Assembly: GCA_043228905.1 (NCBI GenBank)
Contig: JBHGNT010000013.1
Coordinates: 15,438,001-15,502,000, forward strand
Source of the DNA: Azolla caroliniana
Taxonomy: Eukaryota > Plantae > Polypodiophyta
Reading direction: 5' to 3'
Length of the DNA: 64,000 nt
In this document: positions 480-44,220 of the stretch, piece after piece
How positions within the stretch are numbered: the stretch's first letter is position 1
Layout of the letters: each line of letters opens with the position of its first letter
Position numbers and translations under genes: made by a program
Notes under the pieces: model-generated
Told to the model about the DNA's origin: nothing
Databases searched by the model: none
What the model saw: only the letters and a program-made list of their open reading frames with translations

Positions 480-6360
<5,881 letters not shown>

Positions 6361-7124
6361 GGTATTGGTGCTGTTGGGGGATCAAACCTCCTGGACTGGC
6401 TGCAGATTTAGTTAGTTATTACTGCAGACTTTGGATTTTGTTTTCTTTTTAATTGGGTTTCAAGCTTAAGAAGGCCTGAATTGAGAGTAGATCTTTGGTT
6501 GTTCCATGAGTTTTTGTTTTTGTTTTAAAAATGTTAGAAGAAGGAAGATCACCAACTTCATGGCACAAGGTTGTAATAGCACTAGTGTTTATTTACTTTT
6601 TGTTGAGGGGATGTATCAGTAGTATGTATGTGTGGTGGGACTATGGTTAAATGAATGCTCACTTTTTTCCTCACATCAATATACAATAACTTTAATCTAA
6701 AAGGGCAGCATTAAAATGCCAGCAACAAAAGACAAACGTGCAAATGAATGCGTGGTGTTGGAGTGTGGACCCATCCTCTTCCTCTATTGAGAGCAAAACC
6801 AAAGCCATGACATTATATCATGTTAATGTCCTTATAGGAGATAAATAGGTAGATGGATTTTACTATTGTCCAAAGAGGTTAAATATAATCACAAAGACAG
6901 CACACACACACAACAGTTAGAGCATCTGTGTGAAAGGTGAATGGAGTATTGATGAGATCGTTTTGATACATTGGAGCAAGTTGAAAATTTTTCCTCGGTG
7001 GAGTGTTCGTCTTGCCATATCCTACTGCTAACCCATATAGTTGTGACACTGTCACTTGTGATACCAATTGTATAATTTTTTGCACACATTTATTAATGTG
7101 ATTGTGCATGTGTATGCGCGTGGG

Positions 7125-7189
<65 letters not shown>

Positions 7190-8590
7190 GTATTTGCTAA
7201 TTGGAATGGACCAACATGAGACAAGGAAAAATGACGGAGACATGTTTACGAGTTGGCATTGACCTAGATGAGAGGGGGAGAAAGAGAGCCCTACTAATGA
7301 CCTATGTACTCAAAGGGTGCACTACTCAATACACATGCCAACATTTTGAGAGAAACCAAGAGCACAATATTACAAAAATACATTCACAAATATTAGATTA
7401 GATTTTTTCTTGTCAACCACAAGGAGGACAATTTTGACTAATGGGACGTAATAAATATATCATATTATATGTAACATTCTAATCACTAAACTCTTGAAGG
7501 AAATCCCTTGTTATCAACAATATTGAAGAACACATAGAACTCCTCATACACCACTTTGAATATATATATATATATATATATATATGGGAGAGAGAGAGAG
7601 AGAGAGAGAGAGAGCACATGCACGTATTGAGTTGAGTCTCTAGAAAGTCAACAAAGTTGGATTGATGTAGAAATCACACACTATTTTCTTCTTATGACAT
7701 GTTGTTACCTTGGAATATAATGTAGAGGATAATAGTATGGGGTATATGATTTTGATTCAATGATCAATTATGTCCAACACATTTTTAATTCTTTACGACG
7801 CCAAATAAGGAGAGTGCGAGCATGTAAAGCAAGAGTTTTTCTATGTATATTATTTTTTTGCATGGAATAAAAGTAGTTAGGGTAAGGAAATTTAATACCA
7901 TCCAACTATTCCAACCCATACATGTTTGGTGATCTTGTCAATTATTAGTCCTTACCACCTTTTTATAAATGTTGAGCTAATTATACAACTTTTTCAAGTT
8001 TCAACAATGTAATTTTATGTGCAAATGTTTGACAAGGTAGAAGTTGGAGAAATTGATGGAGGGCTATGAGAAAGTTGCATGGGTATATCACATGGGGGAA
8101 TGAATTGCAAATGTAGACCAACAACATTAATGGTGGTTGAACCCTTGCTAGAGATTTCGAATGCCACAATGGGAAAAGCATGTGTTGTGTTTGTACTAAC
8201 CCCTCGTCATAATACCTCGTATGAAGGCTAGATAGGTCGAAGTGACTTGACATATTTAGTATGTAGCTTCATGTAATACGAGCAATTCAATTGTCTTTAA
8301 AATGCATGTTGATTGATTTCAACTATCTCATTACATATATTGGTGCCAACGCCGTCACATCTAACATCACAACGTATAAGGAATTTTGTTTATTTAGAGG
8401 GATCACATCACATTCCAATCCCTTAGCATACTCATTAATATCACAAAACAACTATTCAAAATGTTTTAATATTTGTCGTATAAATACATAAGGTAATTCA
8501 ATTAGTTTCAAATACTCATCACAATCCATCATTATCATGATTTGCATAGTTTAGATTCATTGTTGCATATAGAATTATGTGGCACATAAG

Positions 8591-10776
8591 TGTTACGGGC
8601 ATAACCATATAATATCCCGTGGTGAGAATTTACCGTAGTATTCTTTACACTCTCGTTTAACCCTCACACTTATCCACGTGTATAGAATACTACGGTAAAT
8701 TCTCACCACGGGATATTATATGGTCATGCCCGTAAGACTACGTCGAGACTCTGTCTTGTGGTGGGTCAACTCTTGTAGCGAGCGCGCCAGCACTAGGTAC
8801 GACCCGACGCCATGACAGTGGTATGGGACGCCGATCGAGGCTCGAGTCCGTCTCGATCCCTTCGTTCGAGGGTGGTCGGGTGGATCGGCATCCTTCTTTC
8901 TCTCTCTCCTTTCTTTCTATCTACCTAGATCTATCCTTATCTAATGCTTACTTTAAAAAGGCTCCTTCACTTCTTTTACCCGATCCTTCAAAACCTTTTG
9001 AGGTTGAAACCGATGCAAGCGATTATGCTATAGGTGTTGTCTTATATCAAGATGGTAAACCAATAACATTCGAGAGTAAGAAACTTGATTCTGCTCAATG
9101 TTGGTATACCGTTCAAGAAAGGAATTATTTGCAGTTATACATGCGCTCAAAACATGGCGTCATTATCTTTATGGAAATTGCTTTGTGGTAACTACGGACC
9201 ACAAGTCCTTGAAACATTTTTGTGACCAACAAGACTTGAAAGGTCGTAAGGCACGATGGGCTGATCTCATCCAGGACTTCGATTTTTCCATACAATATCG
9301 TAAAGGTTCCATGAACACTGTCGTTGATGCACTAAGTCGCATCCGTGAAGTTAACATGCTTAGCTTCACTGAAATAACATCAGATCTTTATGATCACCTT
9401 CGAGGAAAGTATCCTGATGACAGTTATTTCGCAAAATATTGGGCAAGAGTTGAGTCTGGAACAGACACCACCACATCCTCGAAGGAATACTTCCACATTG
9501 CTAACCGTTTGCTCTACCATAATAGGAATGTTTGTGTTCCAGATTTACCCGAGGTCAAAAAGAGGATTCTTTTTGAATGCCATGATGCACCCTCAACAGG
9601 GCACCCTGGAATACATCGTACACTCGTTCTCATCTCCACTCAATTTATTGGCCTAAGATGCGCCCTGACATACGTAGTTATGTGACTAAATGTCACCAAT
9701 GTCAGGTTAACAAAGCCGAGTGACTTAAAGCCGCAAGGCTTTTACATCCCTTGGACATTCCCAACAATAAGTGGGAAAGTATATCCATGGATTTTATTGT
9801 TAGCCTTCCTCGCACCCAAAAAGGCCATGATGCCATCTAGGTTGTGGTTGATCGACTAACTAAAATGGCCAGATTTATTGCTACTAAAACCACGGTAACA
9901 ACTCCTAAATTGGCTTACCAATTCGTTGACGAATTATTTCATTTTTATGGGTTACCGATGGATATCGTGAGTGATCGAGATCCAAAATTTACTAGTGACT
10001 TCTGGACGCAAGTCTTTAAGAAGTTAGAAACTACGTTGAGCATGAGCTCCATGGATCATCCTCAATCCGATGGACAAACAGAACGAGTAAATCAAATTAT
10101 TGAGGACATGCTTCGAGCATATGTTGGTGCAAAACCAACAAAATGGGAATGTTATCTCCCAATTTTGGAGTTTGCTTATAACAACTCCAAGCATACGTCG
10201 ATGGGATATAGTCCTTTTATGTTGATGTATGGTTTTCAGCCACGAGCCCCGATTGATGTTAATATACATCATGATGAGTTGCGAAGTACGCAAAACTTTC
10301 TTCGGGATATGCAAGATATGTTGCATATTGCACGAGATAATATAAAAACAGCTCAAGATAGAGCCCGTTTTTATGCCGATCATCATAGCCAACCTCGTGT
10401 ATTCAACCCTGGACATAAGGTATTTTTACGTGTACCTCACAATTCTAAGACATTGTCTACAGGTAAGTGCGCTAAGTTAGCCCCACGGTTTTGTGGACCT
10501 TTTACAGTCCTCAAACGCATTGGGTCATCAGCCTATCGTCTCGCTCTTCCCGATGGTGTTGGAATTCATCCAGTCTTTCATGTGAGTCGTTTAAAAGAAC
10601 TTCTAGGTTCTGGCGACAATACAATTACACTGTTGTTTAACCCTCACACTTATCCACGTGTATAGAATACTACGGTAAATTCTTTACACTCTCGTTTAAC
10701 CCTCACACTTATCCACGTGTATAGAATACTACGGTAAATTCTCACCACGGGATATTATATGGTCATGGCCATAACA
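8591..10776 (+). mobile_element. Rearranged Gypsy derivative (RNase H-integrase segment) bounded by inverted LTR U3 ends
   Basis: Starts TGTTACGGGC and ends GGCCATAACA. RNase H (ETDASDYAIG) and integrase (VSDRDPKF, HPQSDGQTER, GPF) are near-identical to the 18636-34344 element. Flanks are ATAAG and GTAAG. Confidence 0.9.
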
Positions 10777-11392
10777 GTAAGGGATGAGAATGAAGGAACT
10801 AGGGGGAGTGTGAATGGTCAACAAATGTAAATTCAAGGTGGAAAATATAAGGTTGCATGTGCATGTGATTTAGTGCTCACACTTGTGAAGCAAATAGAGT
10901 GGATCAAGTGCATATACCATGTGCCAATAACTATACTTGCATTAAAGAGAGGACTTGTGAATGTGGTAAGGGTCCCGTCGCAATTACATATTCATTTTAG
11001 AACCCAAGCGTCCAAATCCTAAGAATGAAAAGCCATGAACCATGTGTTGAGGGCATTAGCATAGTGGGATCCACTTTGTTTATTGATTGGGATAGAGCGA
11101 GAGAGAGTTATGTGAGGAAAACTTCAAAGAGGGGATGTTATCTATAGTCGTAATCATAATTCTCTCATATGAACTCCAATTTGAGCAACGTATAGTTGGA
11201 GTGAATCATGTTAAGAGGGCTACATATTCATACAAAAAACATGATCGTCATAGGCCAAGAGAGTATGTCTGTCAACAATTACACTTTCAATATAACTCCT
11301 TGTGACTCACCCATCTTGATTGATACGAGAGTACACAAGGAAAAGATGGTACATATATGTAGAAGAGGATTATCATAGTGGTTTGGTTTGTT

Positions 11393-11440
11393 GAGAAATG
11401 CTAGAAACACCGGGTCATTTAGAAAAGGTAATATGTCGCA
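11393..11440 (+). repeat. Left TIR of the Sola-like element
   Basis: GAGAAATGCTAGAAACACCGGGTCATTTAGAAAAGGTAATATGTCGCA, an inverted match to 34915-34960. Confidence 0.8.
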
Positions 11441-12246: not shown

Positions 12247-15200
12247 TCACTCCATTAGGAGGTCTGGAACAGGCTGCTCTCCAAGATTAGCTGATAGTGG
12301 TGCTACATCAACATGTTTTGTCTCCTCAGTTGAATCTTGTATATGATTAGAACCCGATGCATCTTCAAGGTCGACAAGGTCGCCTCCTTCCTCGTCTATA
12401 GGTTCCATCGGCTCTCTAGAGGCCCTCTAAAACATCTCTGTTTCATTGATATGCTTTGCCCCAACCTCTTGGTCTTGGTCGGGACAATCCCAGATGCCTT
12501 GGATCCTCATCTTGATAAAATTGACTTGGTCGAGGTCCTTTTCTAATGCGACGCAATTCCTGAACAATGTAAGAGTACATGCAATCGTCGTTCCTAAATA
12601 AACAATCACACATACAAAAGTAAGAAAACAGGACAAGAAAGAATATTTCATTTAAAAAAAAATTGATGAAACCGATGAGATTACCTGTTCCAGAAAATAA
12701 GTTGAGAACCCAATCATCAGGGTTCGAGAACAACTCGAATAATCGATTAATCAATCGTTGGGGCTTTTGATAAGGGTTTACTAAACTCTTATCGCCAGAC
12801 ACGTGGTGCAATTTCTTCGTTACAACTGGGCACATGATATAGTTGACAACGTTCCGCTCATTAACATGTGTCAGAGCCTTCTTCTTAGAAATTGCGTCGT
12901 AGTAGCCCATGCACATGTGCTCCACAACACACACCATTCGATCAGCCGAGGTACGAGTTATGTTCGTTTTAACCCTATTGTATAATTGAATCGAAACAAG
13001 TTAATAAATATGTAGTAAGAAACATAGAATCCATACGTTAAATATATAGTAACATAATGCTTACCAATGCATATGTTCGGTGGCATGGCATCTCCACTTC
13101 AATGCAGTCGTGACCGATAATGCCCGACCCATACTGTGAAATATAACAATACGCCATAATGGTGCCTGGGCTAGCTCCGCAAAAGTCCTTAACCATCTTC
13201 TCTATTTGCGGATATTTGTATGGCACATTGTCGTATGTCGAACCTGATATTCTGAAGCCATACGATATATCCGCCATGTCACCATTATATACACTATAAT
13301 ACAATTGTCGGAAAGGATCACTCTTGTGCAAAAAGCTTTTTACAGTATCTGAGTCCTCAAGCACCTTGAGCTCCTTTCCTTTTGTCATTCGTTTCTCGTA
13401 TTTAGCTTGTTCCAAATGGGTGATGAAGGTGCTAGGTATGCCTTAATTGCTATCACTATTATTCTTTGAACGAGGTGGTTTCTGTAATTATAAATTTTGT
13501 AAGAAGAAACCCATTATCCAAAAATCAATTAATATTTGTAGAACATACATACCCATTCTCTAAACACGATAAAGAATTCTTCAAGAGCCTTGTAAGATGA
13601 TGTTTTTGGGCAAGATTCTTCCACTTCTTCCCACGTAGACAGGGACAATTTTTTCATCATCAGCTCTTGAATCTTCATATACACCTTATGGCTAAAAAAC
13701 AAAAGAAACTAAAATTAGAATAAAGAAGAAATCAACAAAGCAACAAAGCAATCAAATCAAAATGATACATGCACATATATGACTCACTTTTGAAACTCTG
13801 TGACCATTTCGTTAAGGCTAAACTCCTTGGCAACCACTCTTGATAATATAGATATCAATAATATGTCATCCTTAATTCCTTGTAGTGACCGCCAAGGAAG
13901 TAGCTTCATATCTTCGGCTAACTCTTCAATTACTAAGTCACTTTTACGTGACTTAGATTTCATCTCCACCTGTGGGTCGAGCTTAGCCTTCTTTAATTTT
14001 TGAACCTTTATTTCTTTATGCTCCCACATACTAAAAATGCGATCTTGGACGTCTCACACCTCCCATGTTCTAAAGGCAAGTTGAAACCATGAGTCAGATT
14101 TTCTCAGGCCTTCAGACTTGGTGCTTTCGTCAACTGATATCCCCACTTCAAGCAGACATTGTCGTCGCAATCCAGGATGCAGCCGAGGACCAAATTTTTG
14201 CAGTGCATCAAGGTACTCGTGATGGAAGAACCGGATGCGCTCGATACATGACATCTTTTGTCTATAGTCATTATCGTTATGATCCCAAGCTAACAACTTG
14301 GCTTCTTCATGTGTAAGGCTTGCACACACTTTACATTCTGCATACTTGAAGAAAAGGGTAAGAGGATAATCCTTGACCAGTTGACGTCGGGCTTTAGCAG
14401 AGTGGGATCCTCCAATCACATAGTATGTGTAGTCATTTGCCGAACTGTACTTGAAGTCAACAACAGTAGGGCATTGATCTGGGTCGACCATTACTAAGAA
14501 TGGCACTACAGTCACATGTGGATTAATCTTCATTTTGCTTTTTAAGTTCTGCACATGCACTGAATGTGGCTCTCTAATTTCTATAGCCCGTCTTCCTGTC
14601 TTCGGATCGATGGGTGGCCGTTGAATAGAGCAGATTGGTAAGTGAAATAATTTTCCATTACGGACAAGCTTCGTCTTTACAATATTTTCTCTGATCCGGT
14701 TCTGCTCTAAGGTGAGTATCCCCGATGAAATGTGCCCCCCTAGAGGAATAACTTCGAGCTCGGCTTCTTCCTCCTCATCTTCTACAAACTCGAGGACCTC
14801 TGACTCGTCCTCTTCTGGTTGCTGCCTTTTCTTGTACTTCTTATGTTCCGGTTTGGACTTCTTGGTAGACTTTGGTGGGGTTGTTGCTTGTGTGACCATC
14901 AACTCTCCCTTAATGTACGGGCGCAAAGCAACAATCAAGTTGTTTTTTGTCTGAACATCCTTTTTTAGGGCTTTAGGGTGGCAGGAGTTAGTTATGAAAT
15001 TACGTTCATCGATCTTGATTCTACGAAACCCCACCGAGCTATCAACATCGAAGAAGAGGTTCGATGAGTCGTTGTCTTCATATTCGATGCTCCGTACGTA
15101 GCCGTAGGTGAATGTCTTTCCCATCTGCAACTTGCCTTCACCTTTAGGCTTTGCAAGATTAAGAAGCATGTCCCCTTCTTCCTCACTATAGATCAATGTC

Positions 15201-15340
15201 CACTCCACATCGGGGTAGCTCTTCAAGCGAGGCTCCCCACTCTTTTCGCCTAAAGTCTTCGGCGTGTTACTGACAAAAGACTTTGAAGTGTCGTCACCTC
15301 CTGACTCAATAAATGCTTTACGAGAATCAACTTTCATCAT
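12247..15340 (-). pseudogene. ParB/Srx-like domain fused to a beta-class N4C/N6A DNA methyltransferase. Exons: 15340-13788, 13691-13553, 13481-13065, 12974-12685, 12593-12247
   Basis: ParB-like core IREP..HV..LK..YYVIGGSHS..A (around 14400-14650). MTase motifs in beta order: ADISYG (motif IV, 13260-13271), W-K, NPYQKPQRLINRLFELFSNPDDWVLNLFSGTG/TT (motifs X and I), RNCVALEKD (motif II). Four short GT-AG introns. Three premature stops and two homopolymer frameshifts. Confidence 0.82.
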
Positions 15341-15736
15341 GCTATCAGAAGGTCTTTTTGTTGGTGATGGATATTATTATTTTTTCCAAAAAATGGTGAT
15401 GGAAATTTTAGTTTGAAGGTCTAAAAACAACAAGTCAGGACACAAGGATATAACAATAATGTTAATAATAAACAATATAGACCTCTTAACTAAGGTAAAA
15501 ATTAGCGAAAATCATACGTTTTTGTATAGAATGTTACATAAAAATATTGAAGAAATAGACCAAAAAATAGCAAAAAATTTGACCAAATCTGATTTATTGA
15601 TCATGAAAATCCCATTTTTCAACGAGAACTCCCTGCATTGCATCGAGTTCTCATTGAAAGGGATACACCTCGATTATGGAAGCAAAAAATGAATAAAACA
15701 AAAAAGAATCTTTAAGGAATCTTTTTTGAATCTAAA

Positions 15737-16206
15737 ATGTTGGGTTGGAAAACATACCTGGCAATTTTCTTTCCCTTGTTCATGTTGATGTTGAAGACGT
15801 TGACTTCATGTTGATGAGAAATAGAAGATGACTTCCCTTTATATAATTTGTTTTGCCTATTTTCAAAAATATTTTAAAAAAAAATAATTTTAATTATTAA
15901 AAAAAAAATAAAAAATATTTTTTTGGACATGGTGCTTATTATAGAACCATGTTGGGTTGGAAAACATACCTGAAAATTTTCTTTCCCTTGTTCATGTTGA
16001 TGTCAGAGATGTTGGCTTGACCTGGGAGGCGAAAACTCGACGATTTTGGTTGGTAAGTGTTCTTGTGCTCTTCTTATGCTTGAACGTGATAATGAGAAAT
16101 AGAAGATGAATTCCCTTTATATAATTTGTTTTGCCTATTTTCAAAAATATTTTTAATTATTAATTTTTTTTTAATATTTTGGACATGGTGCTTATTATAG
16201 AACCAA
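15737..16206. promoter_or_regulatory. Tandemly duplicated ~210 bp divergent promoter region between the MTase and transposase genes
   Basis: ATGTTGGGTTGGAAAACATACCTG..GTGCTTATTATAGAACC occurs twice. Each copy has a minus-strand TATATAAA and a CAG/GTATGT donor. A candidate 5' UTR intron acceptor lies at 15421. Confidence 0.6.
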
Positions 16207-16254: not shown

Positions 16255-18635
16255 ATGTTCTCAAAGTCAAGTGAAAATTCGTTGTTTTCTATTGAACCTG
16301 TTATATTATTTGATAACTCCTTATTCTCAATCGAGGAATATAGCCATGTTAAGACCAACAACGATCAAGAGCAAAGCTCGACGTCAATTTTTTCGATAGT
16401 GCCATTAAACTTAGGTAAAACAAGATATATTAAAGTAGATACAACTCATGTCAAGTCTAGTTTATCGAATGCTAACGAAGACTGTGTCAATAAGCCTCTA
16501 AATTTTCAAAGAGTTCCTCGACAAATGAATGTTAAACGATATAATTTTTTGTGTTCGGATCGACAAATTTCAATTGACATATGCAAGGTATGTTGTGGGA
16601 GCCTTTGTCTATCAAAATTTGGAAAGGCAAACTTGTGGGGTTGTGACAAAAGTATTTGTCTCTCAATGGCGACGGACAAGATGCATTCTTGATTGCCAAT
16701 ATGCAACTTGTTAAGGACCATCTGGCAGTGTCGTGGTCTCCACAGGTGGAATATTACCTTTCACTTACTATGAAGAGTTGTCGAGTTGCTTTTAAAATTG
16801 CTTATAGAATCGAAAACATGAGGGTACAGAGAATTCAACATTGATTACTGATGGGGTGGTGGGTGCCTTTCAACAATACAAAATCTTCATGTAAGGGCCT
16901 GATTGGGCGACATGCTATTAGATGGATGGAGATTTATTTCTCGAAGCAATGTGATGTTATGCCCACCACTGGAAGGTTACATTTGTCAAATAACTTCACT
17001 CGTCGTGAGGTATACCAAGCCTATAAGGATGAAATGTTATTGGAAAGTGTACCTTATATACAATATCAATATTTTAATCGTTTATGGAGATCGAAGTTTA
17101 ACAATGTGGTCATACCCCGCAAGGTCTGGATGGGTGTTTGTTCGATCTGCATGAGTTTAAAAAGCTTGACAAAGAGTGGGACAACAAATGAAGAAATAAC
17201 AAAATATAAGACTTTATTGAGAGAGCATCGAGAAAGCCAAGCGTTGGAAAGATCTAAAGCTATGCACCATCGTCAAAAAGCGCTTCAATCGCTAGAAAGA
17301 TGCATGTGCTTGATTATAGATGGGATGGATCAGAAGAAAACTTGTTTGCCACATTTTCGAAGGTTGCCCAAGGATATTGGAGATGAATGCCTGTGCAAAT
17401 GCACTTAGTAGGATGTATTTTGTATTGTCAGACAATAAGGCCTCAAGTGTTCTTAACTTATCAAAATATCCACAACGACCCTAATCTTACAGTTACAGTC
17501 ATGCAAAGAGTTCTATGGAGTTGGCAAGGTTTACTCCCACCAGTACTCTATACTTGCAATTTGACAACACGGCGAGAGAAAACAAGAACTCAATTGTGTT
17601 TGGTTACCTGAGCATGTTAGTAGACAAGGGTATTTTCATACACATGATCACATAGATCAAATGTTTAGTAGGTTCTCCAAGAAATTAGCGAGGTGCAATG
17701 CTTTCACACTTCCTGTGCTATCAAGTTTGATCGCTAAAGCTTATATCCCCAAGCCAGATGTGCAACATCTAGATGAAGTATATGATTTCAAGCGCTTTTG
17801 TTTGGATGGTGATGGGACTGGATGTAGGGTTCTTGCTCCGCTTAATAATATAAGTTTTAACCATGTCTTCCTCATCCAAAAAAGTGTGGTCGGTCACAAC
17901 CAAACCATGTTGTATGCCAAACAATACTCATATAGTTCTCAATGGGAGCCACAAGACGGATGTAGGCTCTTATTGCATTTCCCAGATGCAATAATCTATG
18001 GTGTTGAGCAAATGCCCTATGACGACCATAAAAGATTGGTTGTTGGTAGTTCAATTGAAGAGAAAAAGATATATTGGATGCGCTGCCTTGAGGGAAAATA
18101 GAAAAATATTGAGCGAACCAAAAAGTACGTTGGTGATCATGATGTGTATTGGTGGGATGTCTTCTTTAATCATCAACATACAATATTAGATAACCACTTT
18201 ATAGGGTGCTGGACACTACAAAATCAATTCGAATGGGCGCTTGGTGGCCCATCAATGGCAAGCACAACTCCTTTACAACCACTAGATAATCTTGAATTGA
18301 ATAATCTAGTTCATCCACGAGACAAAGAGATATTTACGTGGGACCAAGATTATCACATGATGTAGAGGCGAGGTGGCAAGGAAATCTACATGAGCTACAA
18401 GTTGGTATGTTGGTTGCAACATTAGCTGGGGGTGATAAGTTGGGCCATCCCTTCTGGATTGCCAAAATCATTCAAATTATTAAGGATGATGAAGGCAATC
18501 AAGTAAAGTCTATTATGGTTCATTGGTATCATACCTCTTTCAAAGATGCATTTACTAGGAAGTACTCTTTAGAGATGGTTAAGGATGTCGAAGGCACAAG
18601 TAGAAAGCGAAGAAGAAAGAATCTATCAAGCACAT
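16255..18635 (+). pseudogene. Sola-like (DUF7869-type) DDD transposase, 5' part, frameshifted
   Basis: CxxC (CSIC) followed by H, then IIDGMDQKKTCLPH (D at 17319), LYLQFDNTARENKN (D at 17563) and HTHDHIDQMFS (about 17637-17669). Several frameshifts and a short deletion before HTHD. Confidence 0.8.
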
Positions 18636-19094
18636 TTTTAGAGACATGACCTAATGTAAGCATTAGATAAGGATAGAATATAGATAGATAGATAGAAGGG
18701 AGAGAGAGAAAGAAGGGTGCCGATCCACCCGACCACCCCCGAGCGAAGGGATCGAGATGGACTCGAGCCTCGATCGGCGTCCCATACCACCGCCGTGGCG
18801 TCGAGTCGTACCTGGTGCTAGCGCGCTCGCTATATGAGTTGACCCACCACAAGACACAGTCTCAATGTAGTCAACAAGATGCTCAAATGAGGGTCGCTAG
18901 GCCTCTTATTTATAGTGATACCCAAGGCCCCTAGGCAAGTTCACACTTGGCCTAATGGGTTGTCTCAATCCCGAGGATTAAAAGAAATCCTCCCCTTCTT
19001 TACACTCTCGTTTAACCCTCACACTTATCCACGTGTATAGAGTACTACGGTAAATTCTCACCACAGGATATTATATGGTCATGCCTGTAACATA

Positions 19095-20899
19095 CTCCTC
19101 CTCTTTAAAACATTGCACTCTTGCAATGGAAAGTTAGGGAAGTTAGTTCTGAGAGTATTTTCGCGTTCCCATGTGGCATCTTTTATTGATTTATCCATCC
19201 ATTTTATTTTACATTCTTGGATTTCTTTAGTACGTAATTTTTTTGTTTTAACATCGAGAATTATTTATGGTACATGTGGTTTAGAAGATAATTCTTCAGA
19301 AGTAACAAGAGTTTCAGTTGTAACTGTATTGTTGCCAGAACCTTGAAGTTCTTTTAGACGACTCACATGAAAAACTGGATGAATTTCAACGCCATCGGGA
19401 AGAGCGAGACAATAGGCTGATGACCCAATGCGTTTGAGGACTGTAAAAGGTCCACAAAACCGTGGGGCTAACTTAGCGCACTTACCCTTAGACAATGTCT
19501 TAGAATTGTGAAGTACACGTAAAAATACCTTCTGTCCAAGGTTGAATACACGAGGTTGGCTATGATGATCGGCATAAAAACGCGCTCTATCTTGAGCTGT
19601 TTTTATATTATCTCATGCAATATGCAACATATCTTGCATATCTCGAAGAAAGTTTTGCGTACTTCGCAACTCATCATGATTTATAGTAACATCAATCGGG
19701 GCTCCTGGCTGAAAACCATACATCAACATAAAAGGACTATATTCCGTCGACGTATGCTTGGAGTTGTTATAAGCAAACTCCAAAATTGGGAGATAACGTT
19801 CCCATTTTGTTGGTTTTGCACCAACGTATGCTCGAAGCATGTCATCAATAATTTTATTTACTCGTTCTGTCTGTCCATCAGATTGAGGATGATCCGTGGA
19901 GCTCATGCTCAATGTAGTTTCTAACTTCTTGAAGACTTGCGTCCAGAAGTCACTAGTAAACTTTGGATCTCGATCACTCACGATATCCATCGGTAACCCA
20001 TAAAAACGAAATAACTCGTCAACGAATTGGTAAGCCAATTCAGGAGCTGTTACCGTGGTTTTAGTAGCAATAAATCTGGATTGGTGACATTTAGTCACAT
20101 AACTATGTATGTCAGGGCGCATCTTAGGCCAATAAATTGAGTGGAGATGAGAATGAGTGTACGATGTATTCCAGGGTGCCCTGTTGAGGGTGCATCATGG
20201 CATTAAAAAAGAATCCTCTTTTTGACCTCGGGTAAATCTGGAACACAAACATTCCTATTATGGTAGAGCAAACAGTTAGCAATGTGGAAGTATTCCTTCG
20301 AGGATGTGGTGGTGTCTGTTCCAGACTCAACTCTTGCCCAGTATTTTGCGAAATAACTGTCATCAGGATACTTTCCTCGAAGGTGATCATAAAGATCTGA
20401 TGTTATTTCAGTGAAGCTAAGCATGTTAACTTCACGGATGCGACTTAGTGCATCAACGACAGTGTTCATGGAACCTTTACGATATCGTATGGAAAAATCA
20501 AAGTCCTGGATGAGATCAGCCCATCGTGCCTTACGACCTTTCAGGTCTTGTTGGTCATAAAAATATTTCAAGGACTCGTGGTCCGTGGTTACCACAAAGC
20601 GATTTCCATAAAGATAATGGCGCCATGTTTTGAGCGCATGTATAACTGCAAACAATTCCTTTTCTTGAACGATATACCGACATTGAGCAGAATCAAGTTT
20701 CTTACTCTCGAATGCTATTGGTTTACCATCTTGATATAAGACAACACCTATAGCATAATCGCTTGGATCGGATTCAACCTCAAAAGGTTTTGAAGGATCG
20801 GATAAAAGAAGTGAAGGAGCCTTGCACACCAGGTCCTTGAGTTCCTTAAAGGCGAGGTCTAGTGTAGCATTCCAGACAATAGGTTTTGTAGACTTACGC
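19095..20899 (-). pseudogene. Gypsy RNase H, integrase and chromodomain, disrupted
   Basis: ESDPSDYAIG, VSDRDPKF, GPF, and chromodomain-like KIKWMD..DATWE. An internal deletion near 20080 relative to the copy at about 9700-9870. Confidence 0.9.
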
Positions 20900-20919
20900 T
20901 GTCGTGAAGATTCGCACGT

Positions 20920-21659
20920 TGTCGTGAAGAATATCAGCCAGAGGCGGAAACCGGGAAACATTGGCTACATCGGCAGGGTGCAGCGTGTGTACGCACCCAT
21001 GTACATTTAGTGTGAATAACGAGGGCGCCTTTATGGCCCCGAAGAGTAGTCAAGTTGGGACAGACGGTCCCATGTAAGTCGGGGTTTATCCCACATTGTA
21101 ACGCATCCTTGTCCTTGCTCTATAAAAGGAAGGGAACACCCTTTGTTAAAGGGTTGCCCATTTTGCATTAGAGGGTATACCGTTAGGTTTAGAGTTAGTT
21201 TCTTCTTCTTCTCCCCCTTCGTGTTCGCTTAGGGTTTGCTGCAGCTCATCTCCCGTGCAAGACCCCGCTCGGCGCGACGGGCCCGAGAGCTCCCCGACGG
21301 CGGCTTGACATCGGACGACTGTTGTAAGCTATCTTGGTCCGGCTTGAAGCCGGGAATGTATTCTTCTTTTATATATATATATGCGTTTGCGTCTGTCTGT
21401 GTATATTCGCGTCTATGTTGGTGTCGGGTGTTTCCCCTGTCCTGCGTTTCCTGTACATAAGGGCGTGAGGCGGGTCAACATGTGTGTGTGTGTGAGTGAG
21501 TCGGTGTTAAGCACGCTCTCTCTCTCCCTTCGGTTGCTTCCGGTGTGCTTATGGGATGCCCCGGAAACGGTGAAGCACGGCTTCCTACGCTCCGTCACTC
21601 CCTAGTCCAAGACCCCCGTGGTCCCGCCTTTCTCCACGCACGCGCGTAACAACGCGAAA
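20920..21659 (+). mobile_element. Solo LTR of the Trp-primed group, inserted in the LTR of element A
   Basis: TSD ACGT (20916-20919 and 21660-21663). TATA at 21121. U5 end is homologous to the LTRs of elements C and F. Confidence 0.85.
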
Positions 21660-23184
21660 ACGTGCGTGTGCTACTCGAGCGACCACCGGGGTCTTAGACT
21701 GGGGAGGATGATCGTAGAATTATCGAAGAGATGACGATCAATGTAAGATTAGATGAAATTTGTTCACTTGAGAAGAAGAAAGATTGGACACTTGAGAAGT
21801 AGAAAAATATGAAGAAGATAAAGACAAATATAAGTATATTGATGATAATGGTGTTGGTGATATCACATATTGATCCCCCCTTACACAAGCCCAACTAGAG
21901 GCTTTTATAGGTCTTTCCATGCTTGTGACATGCACAAAACCATGGTTTTGTGCACACGGTTTTGCTTATGTCATGCAAAACCATGTGTTTAGAACCATGG
22001 TTTTGTGCACATGGTTTTCTATGGTTGTTTCATCCATAATTCATATATGAAAAGAAAATACATAAAACCTACACTATATGATAGTGGTCCTAGTGGTAAG
22101 GCAATCATCTTGTATCTTAGAGGTGCAAGGTTCAAACCTTACTTGCACCCCTCTGTATGAACTCAAGTGCCACTAGGCCTTAGGTTTATTTGCTAAGTGC
22201 ATGTGCAATGTTGCACATCCTTGGTTTATTTGTCTCACTCGGTTTCACACCGTAGCCGAAAATTGTCACGACATCCACCCCCACCAAACCCGCACATCCT
22301 CCGGTATGTGCCGAGAAAGGTGAAGAGGTGAGATCTTTGGCAACGGTGATCAACCAAGTTCCTCTGCACGCTCGTCGACCTTGTCTGACTTCGTCTTCCA
22401 CTTCGAGTATGCGTAATCTTTCCAACCGAACCACCGTAGCCACCCGATCCACCATATCCAGCGCTCACACCTTCTTCCCCGATCGGTTGTAGTAGATCTA
22501 CTGAACGATGTCGTGGATCCGACCGCTCTTCCTTTGTCCACTGCGTGTGTCCTTCGATTGGATTCCTGGCCACTCCTCGCGCTCACCGTCTTCAACTAGG
22601 TGTTGTGGATCGTTCGTGTCTATCTCCGATTATGCCGGGTTTGCCCTTGTCCGGATCGGTCTCCGCCGATCGCTTCTTGGCTCGGTTGGCCTTCGTCTGC
22701 ATTCGCATTTCGCCGAGTCGGGCTCGACTGATTGATTCCTACCGGGTCGGCCCCCTTTTGGATTGGGATTGTCCGATCGATTTCAGCCGGGTTGGCCCCA
22801 GTCGATCGGCTCCCATGTGGATCTTCCTTCGTTCGGGCCGGAATCCTGGCCGAATCGTCTTCTGGTTCGACCGGTTCTCGACTCTTCCTTCCTTCCCGCA
22901 TGCCGCCTCTCCATTGAACTCAACCGCGGCTTCATCCTTTGCCTCCTCGTCGGCCACATCCTTCCCTCTGTGTATGCTCGCCTCGAGCCATATTGTCTCC
23001 TCTCCGTCACCTCGTTTATCTTCGGTCTTATGTCGACACATGGTCTCGACTGCCGAAGTCTTCGGAACCAGTTTGAAGGAATCCCTTCGTTCATGCACAT
23101 TTACCTTGTCTTCCTTATCGCCCTTCCGGTCGTCCGCTTTTCCGTCCACACATTCCGTCTCTTTGGTCTCACGTTAGCGCACGT

Positions 23185-23706
23185 TGTCGCGTTGCTACGC
23201 ACGTGCGTGGAGAAGGGCGGGACCACGGGGGTCTTGGACTAAGGAGTAGAGGAGAAGGAATCAGACATGGAATGGAAGCTTTGCTCGAGAAGAAGAAGAA
23301 TGAACAAGAGATTAGATCGAACAAGAGGAAGATGGAGACAAGATGATCAACAAGATATATTAAAACGAAGTGAACGATTACAAAATAGTGGCCGCATAGG
23401 CCGCACCAAACGACTACTCGAAACCCTAACCGACAAAGATGAAGATCAAGATAAAGAAACCCTAACCCTAACCCTAACGCTCGACCTATGTGGTATACCT
23501 CGCACACTCAAAATAGGCAACCCCCACAATGGTGCCTTCTCTCTCCTTTTATAGCACACAAGGAGGGAAGACCGTTTACAAAAGTGAGACTAAAATATCC
23601 CCTTTCATTCAAAGGGGATATTTGCCTTGATTTGGGGGAGGGTGAGATTGATGCCCCCTCAATTCCCACCTCCTCACAAACAACTAGGTACCTATGTACC
23701 GCATAG

Positions 23707-23744
<38 letters not shown>

Positions 23745-26700
23745 GTGGATGTGCACACAAGACCACATCACCTTTATACCTTAGGGATCTTATGGGGGCA
23801 TTCCTAGCACCATGCACTTTACCCTTATTACTATTACACATACATTATGTACGTGTGCAACGTTGCACATCGCTCTTTGGCTCTCGTTGCTCGGGTTTCC
23901 GCTTGTGGACGAAAATCTTCACGACATCCGCCCCCACCTAACCGCACATCCACTGGTATGTGCCAAAAGATAGGGGAGAGAACACGAGATTTTCGGCCAC
24001 GACGACCGACCGAGTCCTTAGCGTCCTTGTGGGCCCGCCCGGTTTTGTCTTCCACTTCGAGCAAGACCACCCCATCCATACGAACCGCCGCCGCCTTCCG
24101 GTCCACCATCCTCGTCGAATGGTCTCGAACCGTCGACGCCATCCGATCCGCCACACTCGACGATGTTCGCTGAGTCGTTGCCTCCACCCGATCCGCCACA
24201 TCCACCGTGGGTCCTTGAACCACCGGCTACATCCGATCCGCCGTGTCTGATGCTCGTGCTTTCCTCCCTGTTCGGTCCTCCTGAACGCCGTCGCCGACCC
24301 GGTTGCTCTTCCTTTGTCTGCCTCGTATATCCTCTGGATGCGCTCCCGGTCGCATGCCGGATTCCGCCCTTTGCGTGCCGCGCACCTCGGCGTGCCGACT
24401 CTCTCCGCTCCGCGCTTGCCTTCCGTAGGCTTTCCCCGTTGTTCGCCGTGCTCTCTCGCAGTAGAGCGTGCCATCACTCCGTCCTTCTTCGTGGCTCTCG
24501 TTACCGCTTCGCCTCGACCCGCGCCCTCTTGGCCCGATTGGCCTCGCATGTCCTTCGGGACACCGCGTTTTCTCTTCCAGGTGCGTAGCCCTCCGTTCTC
24601 CACGCACCTCCTCTGTTTTCCTAGATACGACTCTCTGCTTATGCCGATCGCGCTCGGCCCATGTCGTCGATCTTGGTGTTTCGCCGCGCCGTCCTTCCTC
24701 CCGCGCTTGCCCCTCGAAGGCTTGACCCGACCGTCATCGTCGATCAATCGTTGTCGCCCATCCGCCGTATGCATGCTTGTGTCTTGGCCCTCCACTGGCC
24801 GTATTGCATGCGTCTCGTGTCGCGCTTCCGTTGTAGACCCGACCTCCACGTCGGTCTCCAACTTCTCGCCTCCACCCGCCATCTCTTCGGTCTTCCGTTG
24901 GTCCGCAACCGCCAAAGTCTCAAGCATAGGTGTGGAGGGCTCCTCTTGCTCTCGGCCTCTCACCGACCTGTACTCGTCGTGCCCGGTTAGCCTCCTTCTC
25001 GCTCTCACCGGCTCCCACCGTAACCGTACCCGGCCGGCTACGAATCGATCAAACAATCCCGGTCTCGCCGGCTTCCTTCGGTTCGGGCCCGGTTGACCGG
25101 CCCCCGCTTCACTCTTCTTCCGCTTAGCCTCTCGGTCGGGTTGGTTCCCGACTCGCTCCTCGATGCCGCTCCGGACCTCTCCTTCGGTCTTTTCGCACGT
25201 GCCCACTCCGGGCCTCTCATCCTCACGGCCACCGCCCATCTGCTCGGTCTTATGTCCGCGCTCGGGTGCAACCGCCGAAGTCTCCGGCCCCGGTGTCGAG
25301 GGATCTCGCCTCCGTCCGCTACAAACCTCCTCTTCGTCATTTCGGTTGCCCGCCTTGCCGCCACCACCGTCCGTCTCTCTAGGTCTCACACCGGCTCTCG
25401 GGCCGGTTGCCGGAGTCTCTAGGACCGGTGTGTGGAAGGTCGCGGCACCGCCGCTCGTCTCTTCTTCCTCGATTTCGCAAGCCTCGAGTATGCTCGCGAA
25501 ATCCTCGTAGAACGTTTCGGGCAACCGCGTCCCGAAACTTTCGCCCACTCTCAAAGTGGCGTCCATTGCTTCGTAGATATCGGCCTCATCCACGGCCGTC
25601 CTCTTTCCACAAGTCAAGAGGGTCACTCGCTCCGCACCCTCTCCCACATCGCCGCCGTGGTCACCCGCCTTGCCGCCGCCACCGTTCGTTACCCCTAGGT
25701 CTCATGCGGGCACTCGGGCCGGCCGCCGGGGTCTCTTGAACCGGTGCGTGTAAGGTAGCAACGCCGCCGCTCGTCGATGCTATGCCCGTAGCCACCTCCA
25801 TTCGGACATCGTCGTCTGTGGCTACCCCGCCTCCGCATATGCAAGCATCAATTATGCTTGCCGCCTCCTCTTCCACGGTCTCCTTACCGTTGTCTCGGTT
25901 GCCCGCCTTGCCGCCGCCACCGCTCGTCTCTCTAGGTTTCACGCCGGCAATCGGGCCGATCGTCGGTGCCTCTAGGGCCGGTGTGTGTAAGGTCACGGCA
26001 CCACCGCTTGTCTCCTCCTCACTCGATGTTTTGGGCCGCCATGTCCCGAATCCGTAGTTACCGGCCTCCATGGCCGTCCATTCGCCGCAAGACGAGAGAG
26101 TCGCTCTTTCCGCACCCTCTCCCATGTCACCATCGTGGTCGCCCGCCTTGCCGCCGCCACCGCCCGTCACTTTAGGTCTCACACCGACTCTCGGGCCGGT
26201 TGCCGGAGTCTCTAGGCCCGGTGTGCGTAAGGTCCCGGCATAACCACCCGTCTTCTCCCCGCTCGATGTTTCGGGCCTCCATGCCCGAACTCCCTCATGT
26301 TCGCTCGAACTGGCGATCTCCGCCTCACCGTCCCCGACCTCATCCTCGGTCGATCTTTGTTCGCATGTCGAGAGGGTGGCTCGCTCCGCACCCTCTCCCG
26401 TGGTACCGATGTACCATTCTCTTTCGGCCTCCTCATCCTCCGATCCGCTCGGGCCCGACTCCGCAATAAGCCCTTCTTCGGCTTCGACTTGTGCCTCTAC
26501 GATCTCGTACGCTTCCCGCACCAAGTCTTCAATGTCGAGCTCCTCCAAACCGATTTGCGTTGAGCTCTCTTCCGGCGATAGTGCGTAGTCGGTCACCGCT
26601 CTCTCTTCTCCGCCGCTCGCGGGCCGCGTTGTGTCCGACCGCCTCTCATCGCATTGTATGCACGCCCATTTCACCTCGTTCCAATCTTCGGTGAGGCCGT

Positions 26701-27767
26701 ACGCCCCTTCATCGTCTTTGAGGTAGGGAAAAATGGCCATTCTCCCCCTTTCGTTGACCGACTTCAAGAATAGTGGGACCTTGTCCACCCCCACCGATTC
26801 TTGATCCCGGACCGAAAGTTGGGAAAACCGGAGATCGAACTCCCGGAATGCCTTCATTGCGCTTCGACGAGCCTTTGCCGACGACACCCATAGATCGAAC
26901 TCGCGTCGATCGTACTTGTACGCCTCTTCCCGTCTTTCTCTCCTTCTTGCGAAATCCCTTGCCATTCTCGTAATTACTTCCGCGATGTCTCTGGCTTCCA
27001 TCTCCTTTCTCCCTTCCCGCCTCTTCACGGTGGGTTCACCAAATATGTCGCGTTGCTACGCGCGTGCGTGGAGAAGGGCGGGACCACGGGGGTCTTGGGC
27101 TAAGGAGTAGAGGAGAAGGAATCAGACATGGAATGGAAGCTTTGCTCGAGAAGAAGAAGAATGAACAAGAGATTAGATCGAACAAGAGGAAGATGGAGAC
27201 AAGATGATCAACAAGATATATTAAAACGAAGTGAACGATTACAAAATGGTGGCCGCATAGGCCGCACCAAACGACTACTCGAAACCCTAACCGACAAAGA
27301 TGAAGATCAAGATAAAGAAACCCTAACCCTAACCCTAACGCTCGACCTATGTGGTATACCTCGCACACTCAAAATAGGCAACCCCCACAATGGTGCCTTC
27401 TCTCTCCTTTTATAGCACAAGGAGGGAAGACCGTTTACAAAAGTGAGACTAAAATATCCCCTTTCATTCAAAGGGGATATTTGCCTTGATTTGGGGGAGG
27501 GTGAGATTGATGGCCCCTTAACTCCCACCTCCTCACAAACAACTAGGTACCTATGTACCGCATAGTACCTCTCTCTCTCTCTCGCGTGGATGTGCACACA
27601 AGACCACATCACCTTTATACCTTAGGGATCTTATGGGGGCATTCCTAGCACCATGCACTTTACCCTTATTACTATTACAAATACATTATGTACGTGTGCA
27701 ACGTTGCACATCGCTCTTTGGCTCTCGTTGCTCGGGTTTCCGCTTGTGGACGAAAATCTTCACGACA
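23185..27767 (-). mobile_element. Non-autonomous Trp-primed LTR element C, nested in A. LTRs 23185-23926 and 27046-27767
   Basis: TSD ACGT, near-identical LTRs, PBS TGGTGAACCCACCGTGAA, PPT at about 23927-23938. Confidence 0.92.
23938..27028 (-). pseudogene. gag-derived acidic, repetitive ORF of element C (455 aa + 569 aa, split by a frameshift)
   Basis: Gag-like DRREFDLWVSSAK..LTEDW, followed by repeated ETPATGP..RP..GGGGKAG units. Confidence 0.7.
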
Positions 27768-29757
27768 ACGTGCACAACCGCCGAAGTCTCTAGAATAGGT
27801 GTGGGGATATCCTTTCTTCCTCGATCTTCTTCCTCCTTATGTTGGGCCTTCGTCTTCCTGTCACCACTTTCCGTCTCTCCGGTCTCACGTTGGCACATGG
27901 GCGCAACCGCCGAAGTCTCTGGAACAAGCGTGGAGAAAGTGTCAACATGGCTATCCGTCGTCAACTCATCCATAGCCACCTCCGACTCGATGTCGTTTGT
28001 CATGGCTACCTCCTCAATCACTTCGGACTCAAACACTTTATCTCCCTCGATCATGCAAGCTTTTCTCATGCTTGCACCTTCATCACCCGATGTTTCGTAC
28101 ACAATGCGTGTTCCAAAACATTTATCCTCCCTCGAAGTGGCGTTCGTCGTCCTCGAGTCATCGGCCTCCTCCTTGGCCGTCGTTTCTTCGTAAGACAAGA
28201 AGGTGACTTGTTTCGCACCTTCTCTCTCGGTACCGTCATACCGAACCTGAGCCTTTGTATCAGCCACTTCATTAACCCGCATTTGTTGGGAGGTCTCTTC
28301 TTCCTCGATCACCATTCGCCTCAGTTTTGTCTCCCTTTTAAGCTTTATTTCTTTTGTTGGTGTCGTGGTGCTGCATCTCGCCCCTCTTCGCTCGTCCCTC
28401 ATGGGTCGTCTTGTTGTCGTCGATATTCTCGCTTGCCCCTTATGGTGTAGTCGGCATACACTTTCCACTTTGCTCCAATCCTCGATGAGGCCATTTGCAC
28501 CATCATCTTCTTCGAGTTTGAGGCCGATGGCCATCCTTTCCATTCTATCGATTGACTTCACGAACATAAGGACCTTATCGACCCCCACCAATCTTTGTTC
28601 CCGCTCCGACAGTTGAGAAAAACGACATTCGAAGTCTACGAATGCTTGTGTCGCGCCTTGGTAGGTCTTCGCCGATGTCACCCATTGGTCGAAGTTGCGT
28701 CGATCTCATCCCTTTAGTCTCTCATAGCCATATTCCTCCAATAGAGCCTTCTCGAAAGTCGCCCACGAATCATGAGCTTCTAGAAGCTCTTTTACATCTT
28801 TGAAGATCGGTTGAGACACCACCCGACAAAAGTACTCTAGCCTCATAGCTTTGTCCACACCTCTTGAATCCATCTCCACATTGTAGACTTTTAGGAAACT
28901 TTAGACTTTGGCGCCGTTGAAATAGCTCACTCGCTCGACTACCCTCTCAACGGTTTGTTGGGCTTCATTTCGTCTTTTCCCTTCTCTTAGAAACTCCATC
29001 ATCCTTTTTGACATTGCCTCCATGAGATCTTTGTCCGGTCTTCACGTCAGGTTTTCACCATCCATCTTTGTCCTCCCCTGCTGCTCTTCACGTCGGGTTC
29101 ACCAAATGATGTCGCGAAGATTTGCGCGTGCATGTGCTACTCGAGCGACCACCGGGGTCTTAGACTGGGGAGGATGTTCGCAGAATTATCAAAGAGATGA
29201 CGATCAATGTAAGATTAGATGAAATTTGTTCACTTGAGAAGAAGAAAGATTGGACACTTGAGAAGTAGAAAAATATGAAGAAGATAAAGACAAATATAAG
29301 TATATTGATGATAATGGTGTTGGTGATATCACATATTGAGGCCCCCTTACACAAGCCCAACTAGAGGCTTTTATAGGTCTTTCCATGCTTGTGACATGCA
29401 CAAAACCATGGGCTAAAACCATGGTTTTGTGCACACGGTTTTGCTTATGTCATGCACAAACCATGTGTTTAGAACCATGGTTTTGTGCACATGGTTTTCT
29501 ATGGTTGTTTCATCCATAATTCGTATATGAAAAGGAAATACATAAAACCTACACTATATGATATTTGTCCTGGTGGTAAGGCAATCATCTTTTTTCTTAG
29601 AGGTGCAAGGTTCAAACCTTACTTGCGCCCCTCTGTATGAACTCAAGTGCCACTAGGCCTTAGGTTTATTTGCTAAGTGCATGTGCAATGTTGCACATCC
29701 TTGGTTTATTTGTCTCACTCGGTTTCACACCGTAGCCGAAAATCGTCACGACAACGC

Positions 29758-34349: not shown

Positions 34350-34654
34350 ATACTCTAGCACTTGATAATGTTGACATACTTCTGTATGACTTCTCCTTGA
34401 CCAAAACAGGCCATCTAAGACGGACTACAATCAAGATAATAAAAGAGAAGATCCCAAATATGCCTATTGATGCAACACAGAGACGAACAAGGAGTATGTC
34501 TCATAATCACGGTGACATTGGATTGCAATTGTATGAAGACAATGGATCGGTTGCTAGTGATGATGAGGATGAGACCTCACAAAGCTCTTCTAATTCGTTG
34601 GGTGGGTCTGAAGGAGAAGGCGTATCTCTGGGAAGTGATGGATCTCATATATGA
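34350..34654 (+). pseudogene. Sola-like transposase, 3' end
   Basis: Removing the Gypsy and one CACAT copy gives an open frame ..NLSST-YTLALDNVDILLYDFSLTKTGHL..GSHI*. Confidence 0.8.

Positions 34655-44173: not shown

Positions 44174-44220
<47 letters not shown>

Follow-up and report, generated by a model that had tools for sequence, protein, structure and literature searches.

The elements so far described as carrying methyltransferase (MTase) genes are retrotransposons, and those plant anti-silencing factors that are known act by removing or blocking 5-methylcytosine (5mC). The MTases of DIRS elements belong to group 2, the PCIF1-like enzymes; eukaryotic clades of N6-adenine MTases include ParB-linked ones in chlorophytes and Emiliania, whereas land plants have few, Emiliania clade 6 derives from prokaryotic or phage ParB-MTase loci, and no clade in the available parts of that survey matches the element described here (PMC4738411). 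Bacteria and phages commonly encode proteins in which a ParB part is joined to an N6_N4_Mtase domain (PF01555) (bioRxiv 2025.10.10.680097). In contrast to the retrotransposons, the subject of this report is a DNA transposon from the fern Azolla caroliniana, which combines in less than 8 kb a predicted writer of DNA methylation, a DNA-binding module of bacterial partition type and a candidate target array. It lies in a stretch of 64,000 nucleotides (assembly GCA_043228905.1, contig JBHGNT010000013.1, positions 15,438,001–15,502,000 of the forward strand), which we call the window and number from its first letter. The anatomy of the element is real and well supported; its function is predicted only.

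The element extends from 11406 to 34949, with termini AACAC...GTGTT and TAGA on either flank (Table 1), and self-comparison of the window recovered its ends as a 36-bp inverted pair (11405–11440 and 34915–34950) complementary at 33 of 36 positions. The left terminus recurs with other flanks in the related loci L001, L003, L004, L007, L011, L013, L014, L035 and L068, described below. The right terminal inverted repeat (TIR) lies 19 kb from the MTase gene because a long terminal repeat (LTR) retroelement has split the 3′ end of the transposase gene; the LTRs of this insertion (18636–19095 and 33882–34347) differ at 26 of 457 sites, and without it the element measures approximately 7.8 kb. An initial annotation, made from the letters of the window, had proposed a TIR transposon in which the MTase gene stands head-to-head with the transposase; the TIRs and the target-site duplication (TSD) TAGA bear this out, and the same layout was found in all 12 related loci with at least 3 kb of upstream sequence.

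The MTase gene occupies five exons of the minus strand, separated by GT-AG introns of 96, 71, 90 and 91 nt, and the motifs read from it initially (YYVIGGSHS, ADISY, NPYQKP and NLFSGT|G, the last interrupted by intron 4) were all recovered. Compared with L001, the closest relative, which we used as reference, the window gene differs at 194 of 4212 sites and carries three premature stops (TGA at 14056, TAA at 13445 and TAG at 12429), one +1 frameshift near 13184 and in-frame deletions of 48 nt and 3 nt; the TAA, the frameshift and the 48-nt deletion fall in the third exon, the deletion (near 13278) directly ahead of catalytic motif IV. The three stops first noted are confirmed; a single frameshift, not two, was found in 12247–15340. 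Two changes affect catalytic motifs: DIPY of the relatives has become DISY, by the C>T change (CCG to TCG against L001) suspected at the outset, and DLFSG has become NLFSG, an Asp to Asn replacement. The transposon copy in the window is dead, and intact relatives keep the gene.

These relatives were obtained by scanning metagenomes with the ParB-like part of the protein. Relatives are encoded in 109 of the 433 matching stretches, and the best 80 of the 109 were analysed (L001 onwards). One of them, L004, is a complete element of 7.6 kb with 37-bp TIRs, an open intronless DUF7869 reading frame of 890 amino acids and an open spliced partner gene of 935 amino acids; L004, L027, L032 and L064 are two-ended elements with TIRs, 6.0–7.8 kb in length. 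In 29 of the 30 loci having all five anchor motifs the gene reads open after splicing, its four introns, of phases 2, 0, 2 and 1, standing at identical places down to 57% amino acid identity (range 57–100%). By this comparison the four predicted splice junctions are conserved across the relatives, in line with the five-exon model drawn from the window. A run taken to be RNA gave five partial contigs, none of them listed with a join across an intron, an outcome that speaks neither for nor against splicing. Motif IV is DIPY in 43 of 43 loci and precedes DLFSGTG in all 29 models, which is the beta order (motif IV before motif I, FxGxG), with I rather than P at its second position. For the MTase domain, the ratio of nonsynonymous to synonymous substitution rates (dN/dS) was 0.016–0.083 in the 10 of 16 pairs in which dS was unsaturated, and in the other six the proportion of nonsynonymous differences was 0.05–0.075 against at least 0.74 for synonymous ones. 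The MTase gene in intact relatives is under strong purifying selection. Trees from 10 loci placed the first long exon of this passenger gene and the transposase in the same three clades, the differences within one clade being unsupported, which indicates stable linkage, not co-evolution, because kin share history. We looked both for the absence of an amino-MTase match and for homologues occurring only as unlinked single-copy host genes, and found neither: open copies such as L004 are linked to the same TIRs and transposase, and the TIR-linked loci, together with adjacent genes in the liverwort Riccia (see below), identify the gene as the passenger of a transposon family, as the initial annotation had it. 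Along the entire element, contig depth summed for each of two runs of DNA type reached thousands, a figure that is not a copy number. Some family members are nested in the transposase or MTase genes of others (L013:3961–4040, L026:4033–4040 and L035:3280), from which it follows that self-immunity is not strict. A search for k-mer enrichment in subterminal or coding regions gave nothing clear.

The assignment of the C-terminal part to the beta-class amino-MTases, made at first from motif order, is supported by matches to Pfam, to phage DNA-MTase profiles (PHROGs) and to Protein Data Bank (PDB) profiles. With PF01555, exon 4 of the window alone scored 21.7 bits (E = 2e-4), under the cut-off of 26.7, whereas exon 4 of L004 (34.2 bits, 3e-8), the Ginkgo protein P0001 (68.9 bits, 8e-19) and the protein P0002 (65.7 bits) scored above it. 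Against solved beta-class adenine enzymes the family profile gave E values of 3e-12 (5hek), 2e-9 (MboIIA), 7e-9 (RsrI) and 7e-8 (CcrM), compared with 1e-3 and 4e-3 for the N4-methylcytosine (4mC) enzymes rotifer N4CMT and PvuII, so that by profile ranking the MTase appears closer to enzymes making N6-methyladenine (6mA) than to those making 4mC. Across the wider family motif IV takes the form D-x-P-Y (DIPY, DAPY, DVPY, DLPY, DFPY and DPPY, the last in two long open reading frames). We predict with little doubt that the enzyme encoded by intact copies is active, and consider that the mark it writes would probably be 6mA, given the D-type motif IV and the profile ranking.

The ParB/Srx-like core proposed for the N-terminal part was recovered as a predicted fold and not by sequence models, no ParB match being found in Pfam (ParBc), PHROGs or NCBIfam. 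Atlas gave DUF3723 (0.96) and ParB_N (0.92) as leads. An AlphaFold model of the long exon of L004, built with 66 sequences, had a predicted local distance difference test (pLDDT) value of 81; in Foldseek its top matches were ParB and Noc (E = 3e-5, approximately 290 columns spanning the N-terminal domain and the central one), with 12 matches at E of 1e-3 or lower, and phage ParB proteins matched at 7e-6. With VIA, the model matched PadC at Z 9.7 (root-mean-square deviation (rmsd) 3.1, 99 residues aligned), KorB at Z 8.5 and pNOB8 ParB at Z 8.2 (rmsd 4.6, 207 aligned). The N-terminal part is thus predicted to have a ParB/Srx fold. A beta domain of its own, modelled with confidence, is made up of residues 42–154; weak matches of this domain to PH and SANTA folds (Z 4–5.2) serve as a lead.

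Between the two divergent genes, many family members carry an array of palindromes, which the initial annotation had not mentioned and of which the window keeps a single decayed copy. The family palindrome reads TCGATRC-N3-GYATCGA; its 15-bp core, CGATRC-N3-GYATCG, was matched 180 times in the loci, and 167 of these matches lie upstream of the MTase gene, between the two reading frames. At least one palindrome was present in 23 of the 26 loci with enough upstream sequence, with up to 15 copies, whereas the TIRs showed no such motif. The 123 spacings group around 31–32, 40–42, 50–52, 63 and 72 bp, giving a phase score of 0.77 at 10.3 bp, and the half-sites are clade-specific: AAT(C/T)CGATGC, AA(C/T)TCGATAC and A(A/G)GTCGAT(G/A)C. 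From the palindrome and the analogy with ParB and parS, we think it likely that the ParB-like protein binds this array.

A candidate first coding micro-exon (MNKGKKI.) is also found between the genes in the window, L004 and L005, and splices in frame in L004; it was not detected in clades other than that of these three. If it is used, the palindrome of the window's clade would sit in the first intron. Past its acceptor the window is rearranged (approximately 15420–15370, minus strand), showing relative to L001 a short deletion and a small insertion with a hairpin at 15379–15394; with the micro-exon in use, the reading frame would be shifted by this change, which is possibly an excision footprint. 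An inter-gene duplication (15737–15806 with 15949–16018, and 15814–15949 with 16092–16205) accounts for the second copy of the candidate micro-exon and also repeats A/T-rich sequence close to it.

A plant transposable element family was originally envisaged, and this holds; the range is, however, wider. Named homologues come from Ginkgo (four gene models), Adiantum nelumboides, A. capillus-veneris and Ceratopteris, and further ones from Riccia sorocarpa, Chara braunii and the sea cucumber Holothuria leucospilota, whose protein has both parts. In Riccia, R1sor_010795 (DUF7869) and R1sor_010796 (ParB part and PF01555) bear consecutive gene numbers, and a second transposase–MTase pair (022315 and 022317) is two numbers apart, so that a transposase lies within two gene numbers for two of the four named Riccia proteins; no such adjacency was found for six Chara genes or the Holothuria gene among 120 of 316 transposase matches listed. 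A tree was built for the ParB core from 43 of the 66 rows, without near-duplicates and those that were short; its clades follow host lineage and the window family groups with Ceratopteris (Shimodaira–Hasegawa-like approximate likelihood ratio test, 99), as would be expected of a fern host, but it does not resolve the deep branches, and long branches meet. No prokaryotic protein spanning both the ParB part and the MTase was found in homologue and phage searches: 94 phage records match the MTase part only, with 24–27% identity in the 25 listed, and a scan of viral contigs with the protein P0136 returned nothing. Names were looked up for 20 among the best 150 of 1126 representative matches, and every one named is eukaryotic. 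Distant proteins with ParB part and MTase include P0168/P0186 (Holothuria leucospilota), P0136 and P0175, and in Atlas the feature neighbours of the ParB part include fungal DUF3723 as well as clusters from sponges and molluscs.

The simplest reading of a ParB/Noc-like domain, a helically phased palindrome and a conserved fused amino-MTase within one small element is a self-targeting writer. The protein from the second gene would bind the phased array through its ParB/Noc-like domain, cooperatively and along one face of the helix; the fused MTase would methylate nearby adenines in cis, placing 6mA on its own element; and with this mark the control region common to the two divergent genes would stay open despite silencing by host 5mC. 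Precedents for such anti-silencing are VANC, an accessory protein with tandem target motifs (PMC5735166), and the DAM-LTR elements (bioRxiv 10.64898/2026.05.21.726589). We regard self-targeted 6mA writing that keeps the control region permissive against 5mC silencing as the best explanation, and hold it with somewhat less than even confidence, the anti-silencing outcome appearing the least certain step. The fuller proposal, of an ancient eukaryotic cut-and-paste lineage (Chara, liverworts, ferns, Ginkgo and a distant animal branch) with a ParB/parS-like system that reads and writes 6mA in cis, we put forward more tentatively still, as possible rather than probable.

A number of observations weigh against these proposals. 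The 80 loci represent one accession series, in which many high-coverage contigs collapse many copies, and are not 80 independent genomes. In the structural comparisons, the alignments continue into the central domain of ParB, Noc and KorB, but the DNA-binding domain of KorB alone matched at Z 5.0 (rmsd 5.0, 105 aligned), so that the likeness is weaker centrally, and the whole-chain rmsd to ParB is high, at 7–15 Å. The Box II arginine (GxxR), placed by motif analogy, is absent from all 66 rows (S in 51, G in 6, T in 4, C in 3, Y in 1 and N in 1), and this arginine is required for nucleotide binding in the ParB-fold proteins tested (bioRxiv 2025.10.10.680097); the protein therefore probably stays at its sites, binding them cooperatively and in phase, instead of sliding as a canonical CTP clamp. 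Its predicted recognition region is near-identical across clades whose half-sites differ. As for the array, tandem duplication inflates the phasing, the spacings being non-independent, and the phase score falls to 0.48–0.51 on the 26 distinct spacings; the enrichment of the motif (57 against 0–1) is circular, the motif having been derived from the same loci; several subfamilies have only one or two palindromes (L004 and L032), and with up to one mismatch allowed none is seen in L064 or L077. In the window copy C>T changes are found at 23 of 243 CG, 36 of 203 CHG and 28 of 1186 CHH sites, and four low-coverage copies show the same CG- and CHG-biased decay; decayed copies thus carry a normal 5mC footprint, and any protection does not last. 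Finally, the benefit of 6mA to DAM-LTR elements is tied to hosts bearing AMT1 (bioRxiv 10.64898/2026.05.21.726589).

Among the alternatives, the one that survives best, which we nevertheless consider unlikely, is self-control of transposition with the same binding and methylation, the array-bound protein acting as a KorB-like repressor or switch between the divergent promoters; hemimethylation after replication would time transposase expression or use of the ends, or would mark the element against self-insertion. Dam control of bacterial IS elements is a precedent, and the position of the array between the two genes, the presence of KorB and Noc among the structural matches and the 5mC decay of old copies, which fits an absence of lasting anti-silencing, argue in the same direction, whereas the lack of the motif at the TIRs, the copies inserted in the transposase genes of other copies (L013 and L026), which speak against strong immunity, and the number of sites in phase, which reaches 15 and exceeds the needs of a simple operator, argue in the other.

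It is improbable, in our view, that the enzyme instead writes 4mC, for example at the CG of each half-site, as a direct block to host 5mC. Enzymes with a D-type motif IV that make 4mC exist, and there is one CG per half-site; nevertheless, the characterised eukaryotic 4mC enzymes carry SPPY or TSPPY where the present family has D-x-P-Y, and 4mC enzymes rank four to nine orders of magnitude below the 6mA enzymes. Both characterised eukaryotic beta-class enzymes do write 4mC (PMC8885841, PMC10406627, bioRxiv 2021.02.12.428880). We give still less credence to a role as a transposition accessory factor or to action in trans, on host DNA, single-stranded DNA or RNA, with the palindromes bound by the transposase or arising as a by-product of tandem duplication: the transposase has helical and winged-helix-like regions of its own, some members are without arrays, and several N6-adenine MTases have moved to RNA in eukaryotes (PMC4738411), yet one small element brings together a domain of ParB/Noc type and a palindrome of 15 bp, and the array is not subterminal. 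That the passenger was captured and is neutral, or stands beside the transposase by chance, as the degenerate state of the window copy and of many database gene models might suggest, is contradicted by dN/dS values of 0.02–0.08, by catalytic motifs that do not vary and by the linkage seen in all 12 loci and in Riccia, and is very improbable.

The transposase gene of the window contains several stops and frameshifts. In the family alignment three aspartates are conserved, with D355 in 82, D436 in 86 and D478 in 87 of 87 rows. The transposase model (pLDDT 80) matched an integrase (Z 9.7, rmsd 2.6, 129 aligned) and Mos1 (Z 9.3, rmsd 3.2, 162 aligned) with VIA, whereas its best E value in Foldseek was only 6e-3. 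Matched 4-bp TSDs were seen in two of five two-ended elements (TAGA in the window and TGTT in L027); those of L004, L032 and L064 are unmatched, and these are metagenome contigs that may join the ends of separate copies. At the C-terminus of the L004 transposase, residues ~725–835 form a beta domain (VGMLVAT...PFWIAKI...VHWY) whose structure weakly matches the BAH1 histone-reader domain of DNMT1 (E = 0.024), a match noted as a lead; such a domain could direct insertion according to chromatin state.

The surrounding region is plant DNA rich in remnants of LTR retroelements; upstream of the element it contains an aldehyde dehydrogenase exon. Large inverted repeats (8736–10629 and 18678–20823) were considered as the transposon TIRs and rejected, being pieces of LTR retroelements. 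Host aldehyde dehydrogenase exons lie on the minus strand at 3561–3950 (PF00171, E = 4e-7) and 6133–6381, the latter resembling the N-terminal exon of the same gene, 5 kb from the left TIR. At 8589–10780 there is a rearranged piece of the same LTR family as the insertion at 18636–34344, in opposite orientation, with LTR-end sequence doubled and inverted and a 150-bp palindrome (8589–8739). Within the LTR insertion, nested GC-rich LTR-like elements occupy 21000–29750, with relatives at 44000–62000; they contain arrays of 59–86-bp degenerate repeats with GGTCTC, and a low-complexity reading frame of 587 amino acids (23938–25701) with no Pfam match. Short palindromes of the AAACCATGGTTT type are clustered at 21931–22009 and 29397–29503, in a duplicated segment (21661–22273 and 29127–29753). 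One kilobase past the right TIR, near-intact Ty3/gypsy gag (244 amino acids) and pol (1131 amino acids) reading frames lie on the minus strand at 36015–40105.

Table 1. Features of the transposon in the window, in order of position.
Feature	Position	Strand	Basis or remark
Left 4-bp TSD, TAGA	11402–11405	+	Same TAGA at 34950–34953
Left TIR, starting AACACCGGGTCATTT	11406–11440	+	Inverted pair in self-comparison
MTase gene, last exon: end of the S-adenosylmethionine-binding motif (G-TT), RNCVALEKD, acidic tail	12247–12593	-	Contains premature TAG
MTase gene, exon with W-VK, NPYQKP (~12778–12761) and NLFSGT (relatives: DLFSGT); intron 4 splits FxGxG	12685–12974	-	PF01555
MTase gene, exon with catalytic motif IV, DISY at 13271–13260 (relatives: DIPY)	13065–13481	-	Alignment to relatives
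MTase gene, helical-linker exon, 139 nt	13553–13691	-	Same length in 29 of 29 modelled relatives
MTase gene, long exon: predicted PH-like N-terminal beta domain (~15220–14890, weak), acidic/basic linker, ParB/Srx-fold core (GGSH at 14413), ParB/Noc-like central helical region, predicted to bind DNA	13788–15340	-	L004 AlphaFold model and fold searches
Single decayed family palindrome, two mismatches at 15631, within a 43-bp inverted repeat	15617–15659	.	
Candidate first coding micro-exon MNKGKKI., 26 nt, phase-2 donor	15758–15783	-	Also in L004 and L005; second copy at 15970–15995
Decayed intronless DUF7869 (Sola1-like) DDD transposase; DGMDQ, Q.DN..ENKN, HTHDHID	16255–18635	+	PF25273, E = 1.6e-16; alignment to 890-aa L004 reading frame
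Ty3/gypsy-type LTR retroelement with nested insertions, breaking the transposase C-terminus	18636–34344	-	5-bp TSD CACAT; reverse transcriptase and integrase matches
Transposase C-terminal remainder, LALDNVDILLYDFSLTKTGHLR..., end approximate	34345–34654	+	
Right TIR	34915–34949	-	Inverted pair in self-comparison
Right 4-bp TSD, TAGA	34950–34953	+	Matches left copy

Among known transposons, the element appears to come closest to Sola1, with which it has in common a 4-bp TSD, an intronless DDD transposase and a length within 2–15 kb (PMC10741241). Cluster_4009 of Cibotium barometz, filed as Sola1 with 19 recent copies (PMC12973397, Table S2), has a short TIR starting AACACC..G.CATTTGAAA, as here, and in its first 400 nt, the part compared, which is printed one row off, reads ...VYGFTLKKSGHL by eye against ...VYDFSLTKSGHL in the present element. 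The likeness of the TIR, the 4-bp TSD and this by-eye peptide match to the Cibotium element suggest a Sola1-like assignment. The main text of PMC12973397 has no mention of ParB, and the sole methyltransferase in it is rice DRM2; it appears that the transposon itself is catalogued as Sola and that its passenger system is not. Full-text searches of the literature yielded no description of a DNA transposon carrying a gene for a PF01555 protein or a ParB-MTase, although subscription papers, Repbase and supplements may hold one, and no paper on DUF7869; the available parts of PMC11982613 and PMC5751038 contain nothing on the element.

The system closest in proposed function is that of the DAM-carrying DIRS, DAM-LTR and EpiLTR retrotransposons, which likewise encode a prokaryote-type adenine MTase and for which 6mA self-marking for permissive chromatin has been proposed (bioRxiv 10.64898/2026.05.21.726589, the main text of which has no mention of ParB, PF01555 or a land plant). 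Those elements are retrotransposons with a DAM domain, whereas here a DNA transposon carries a beta-class enzyme with a ParB fusion, introns and a palindrome array in cis, and the MTase is linked to a DDD transposase inside TIRs, not to a reverse transcriptase or tyrosine recombinase. In layout, the closest parallel is VANDAL/VANC of Arabidopsis, in which a DNA transposon of TIR type likewise has an accessory protein, together with non-coding tandem target motifs that differ between related families (PMC5735166). The likeness is one of layout only, VANC causing loss of 5mC, whereas the protein described here is predicted to have a ParB fold and to write a mark. VANC is not known to have an MTase domain.

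If the proposal is true, the element would have a transposon-private epigenetic mark in land plants, written by a natural sequence-targeted adenine writer working in plant chromatin; this would extend ParB/parS-like logic to eukaryotic chromatin and could supply a site-specific adenine writer for plants. The enzyme, its candidate site and fern genomes with many intact-looking or recent copies would allow the disputed 6mA and 4mC of land plants to be tested by long reads. Among host genes, rotifer N4CMT and Marchantia DN4MT1 likewise have the beta motif order and a bacterial origin; they differ in carrying SPPY or TSPPY, in having no ParB part and in matching the family profile weakly (E = 1e-3). 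In domain order, the protein is closest to the prokaryotic and phage ParB-N6N4-methyltransferase fusions, in which a ParB fold likewise stands N-terminal to PF01555 (bioRxiv 2025.10.10.680097), while it differs from these fusions, from ParB/parS and from Noc/NBS in the absence of the Box II arginine, in its additional PH-like N-terminal domain and in its long helical linker.

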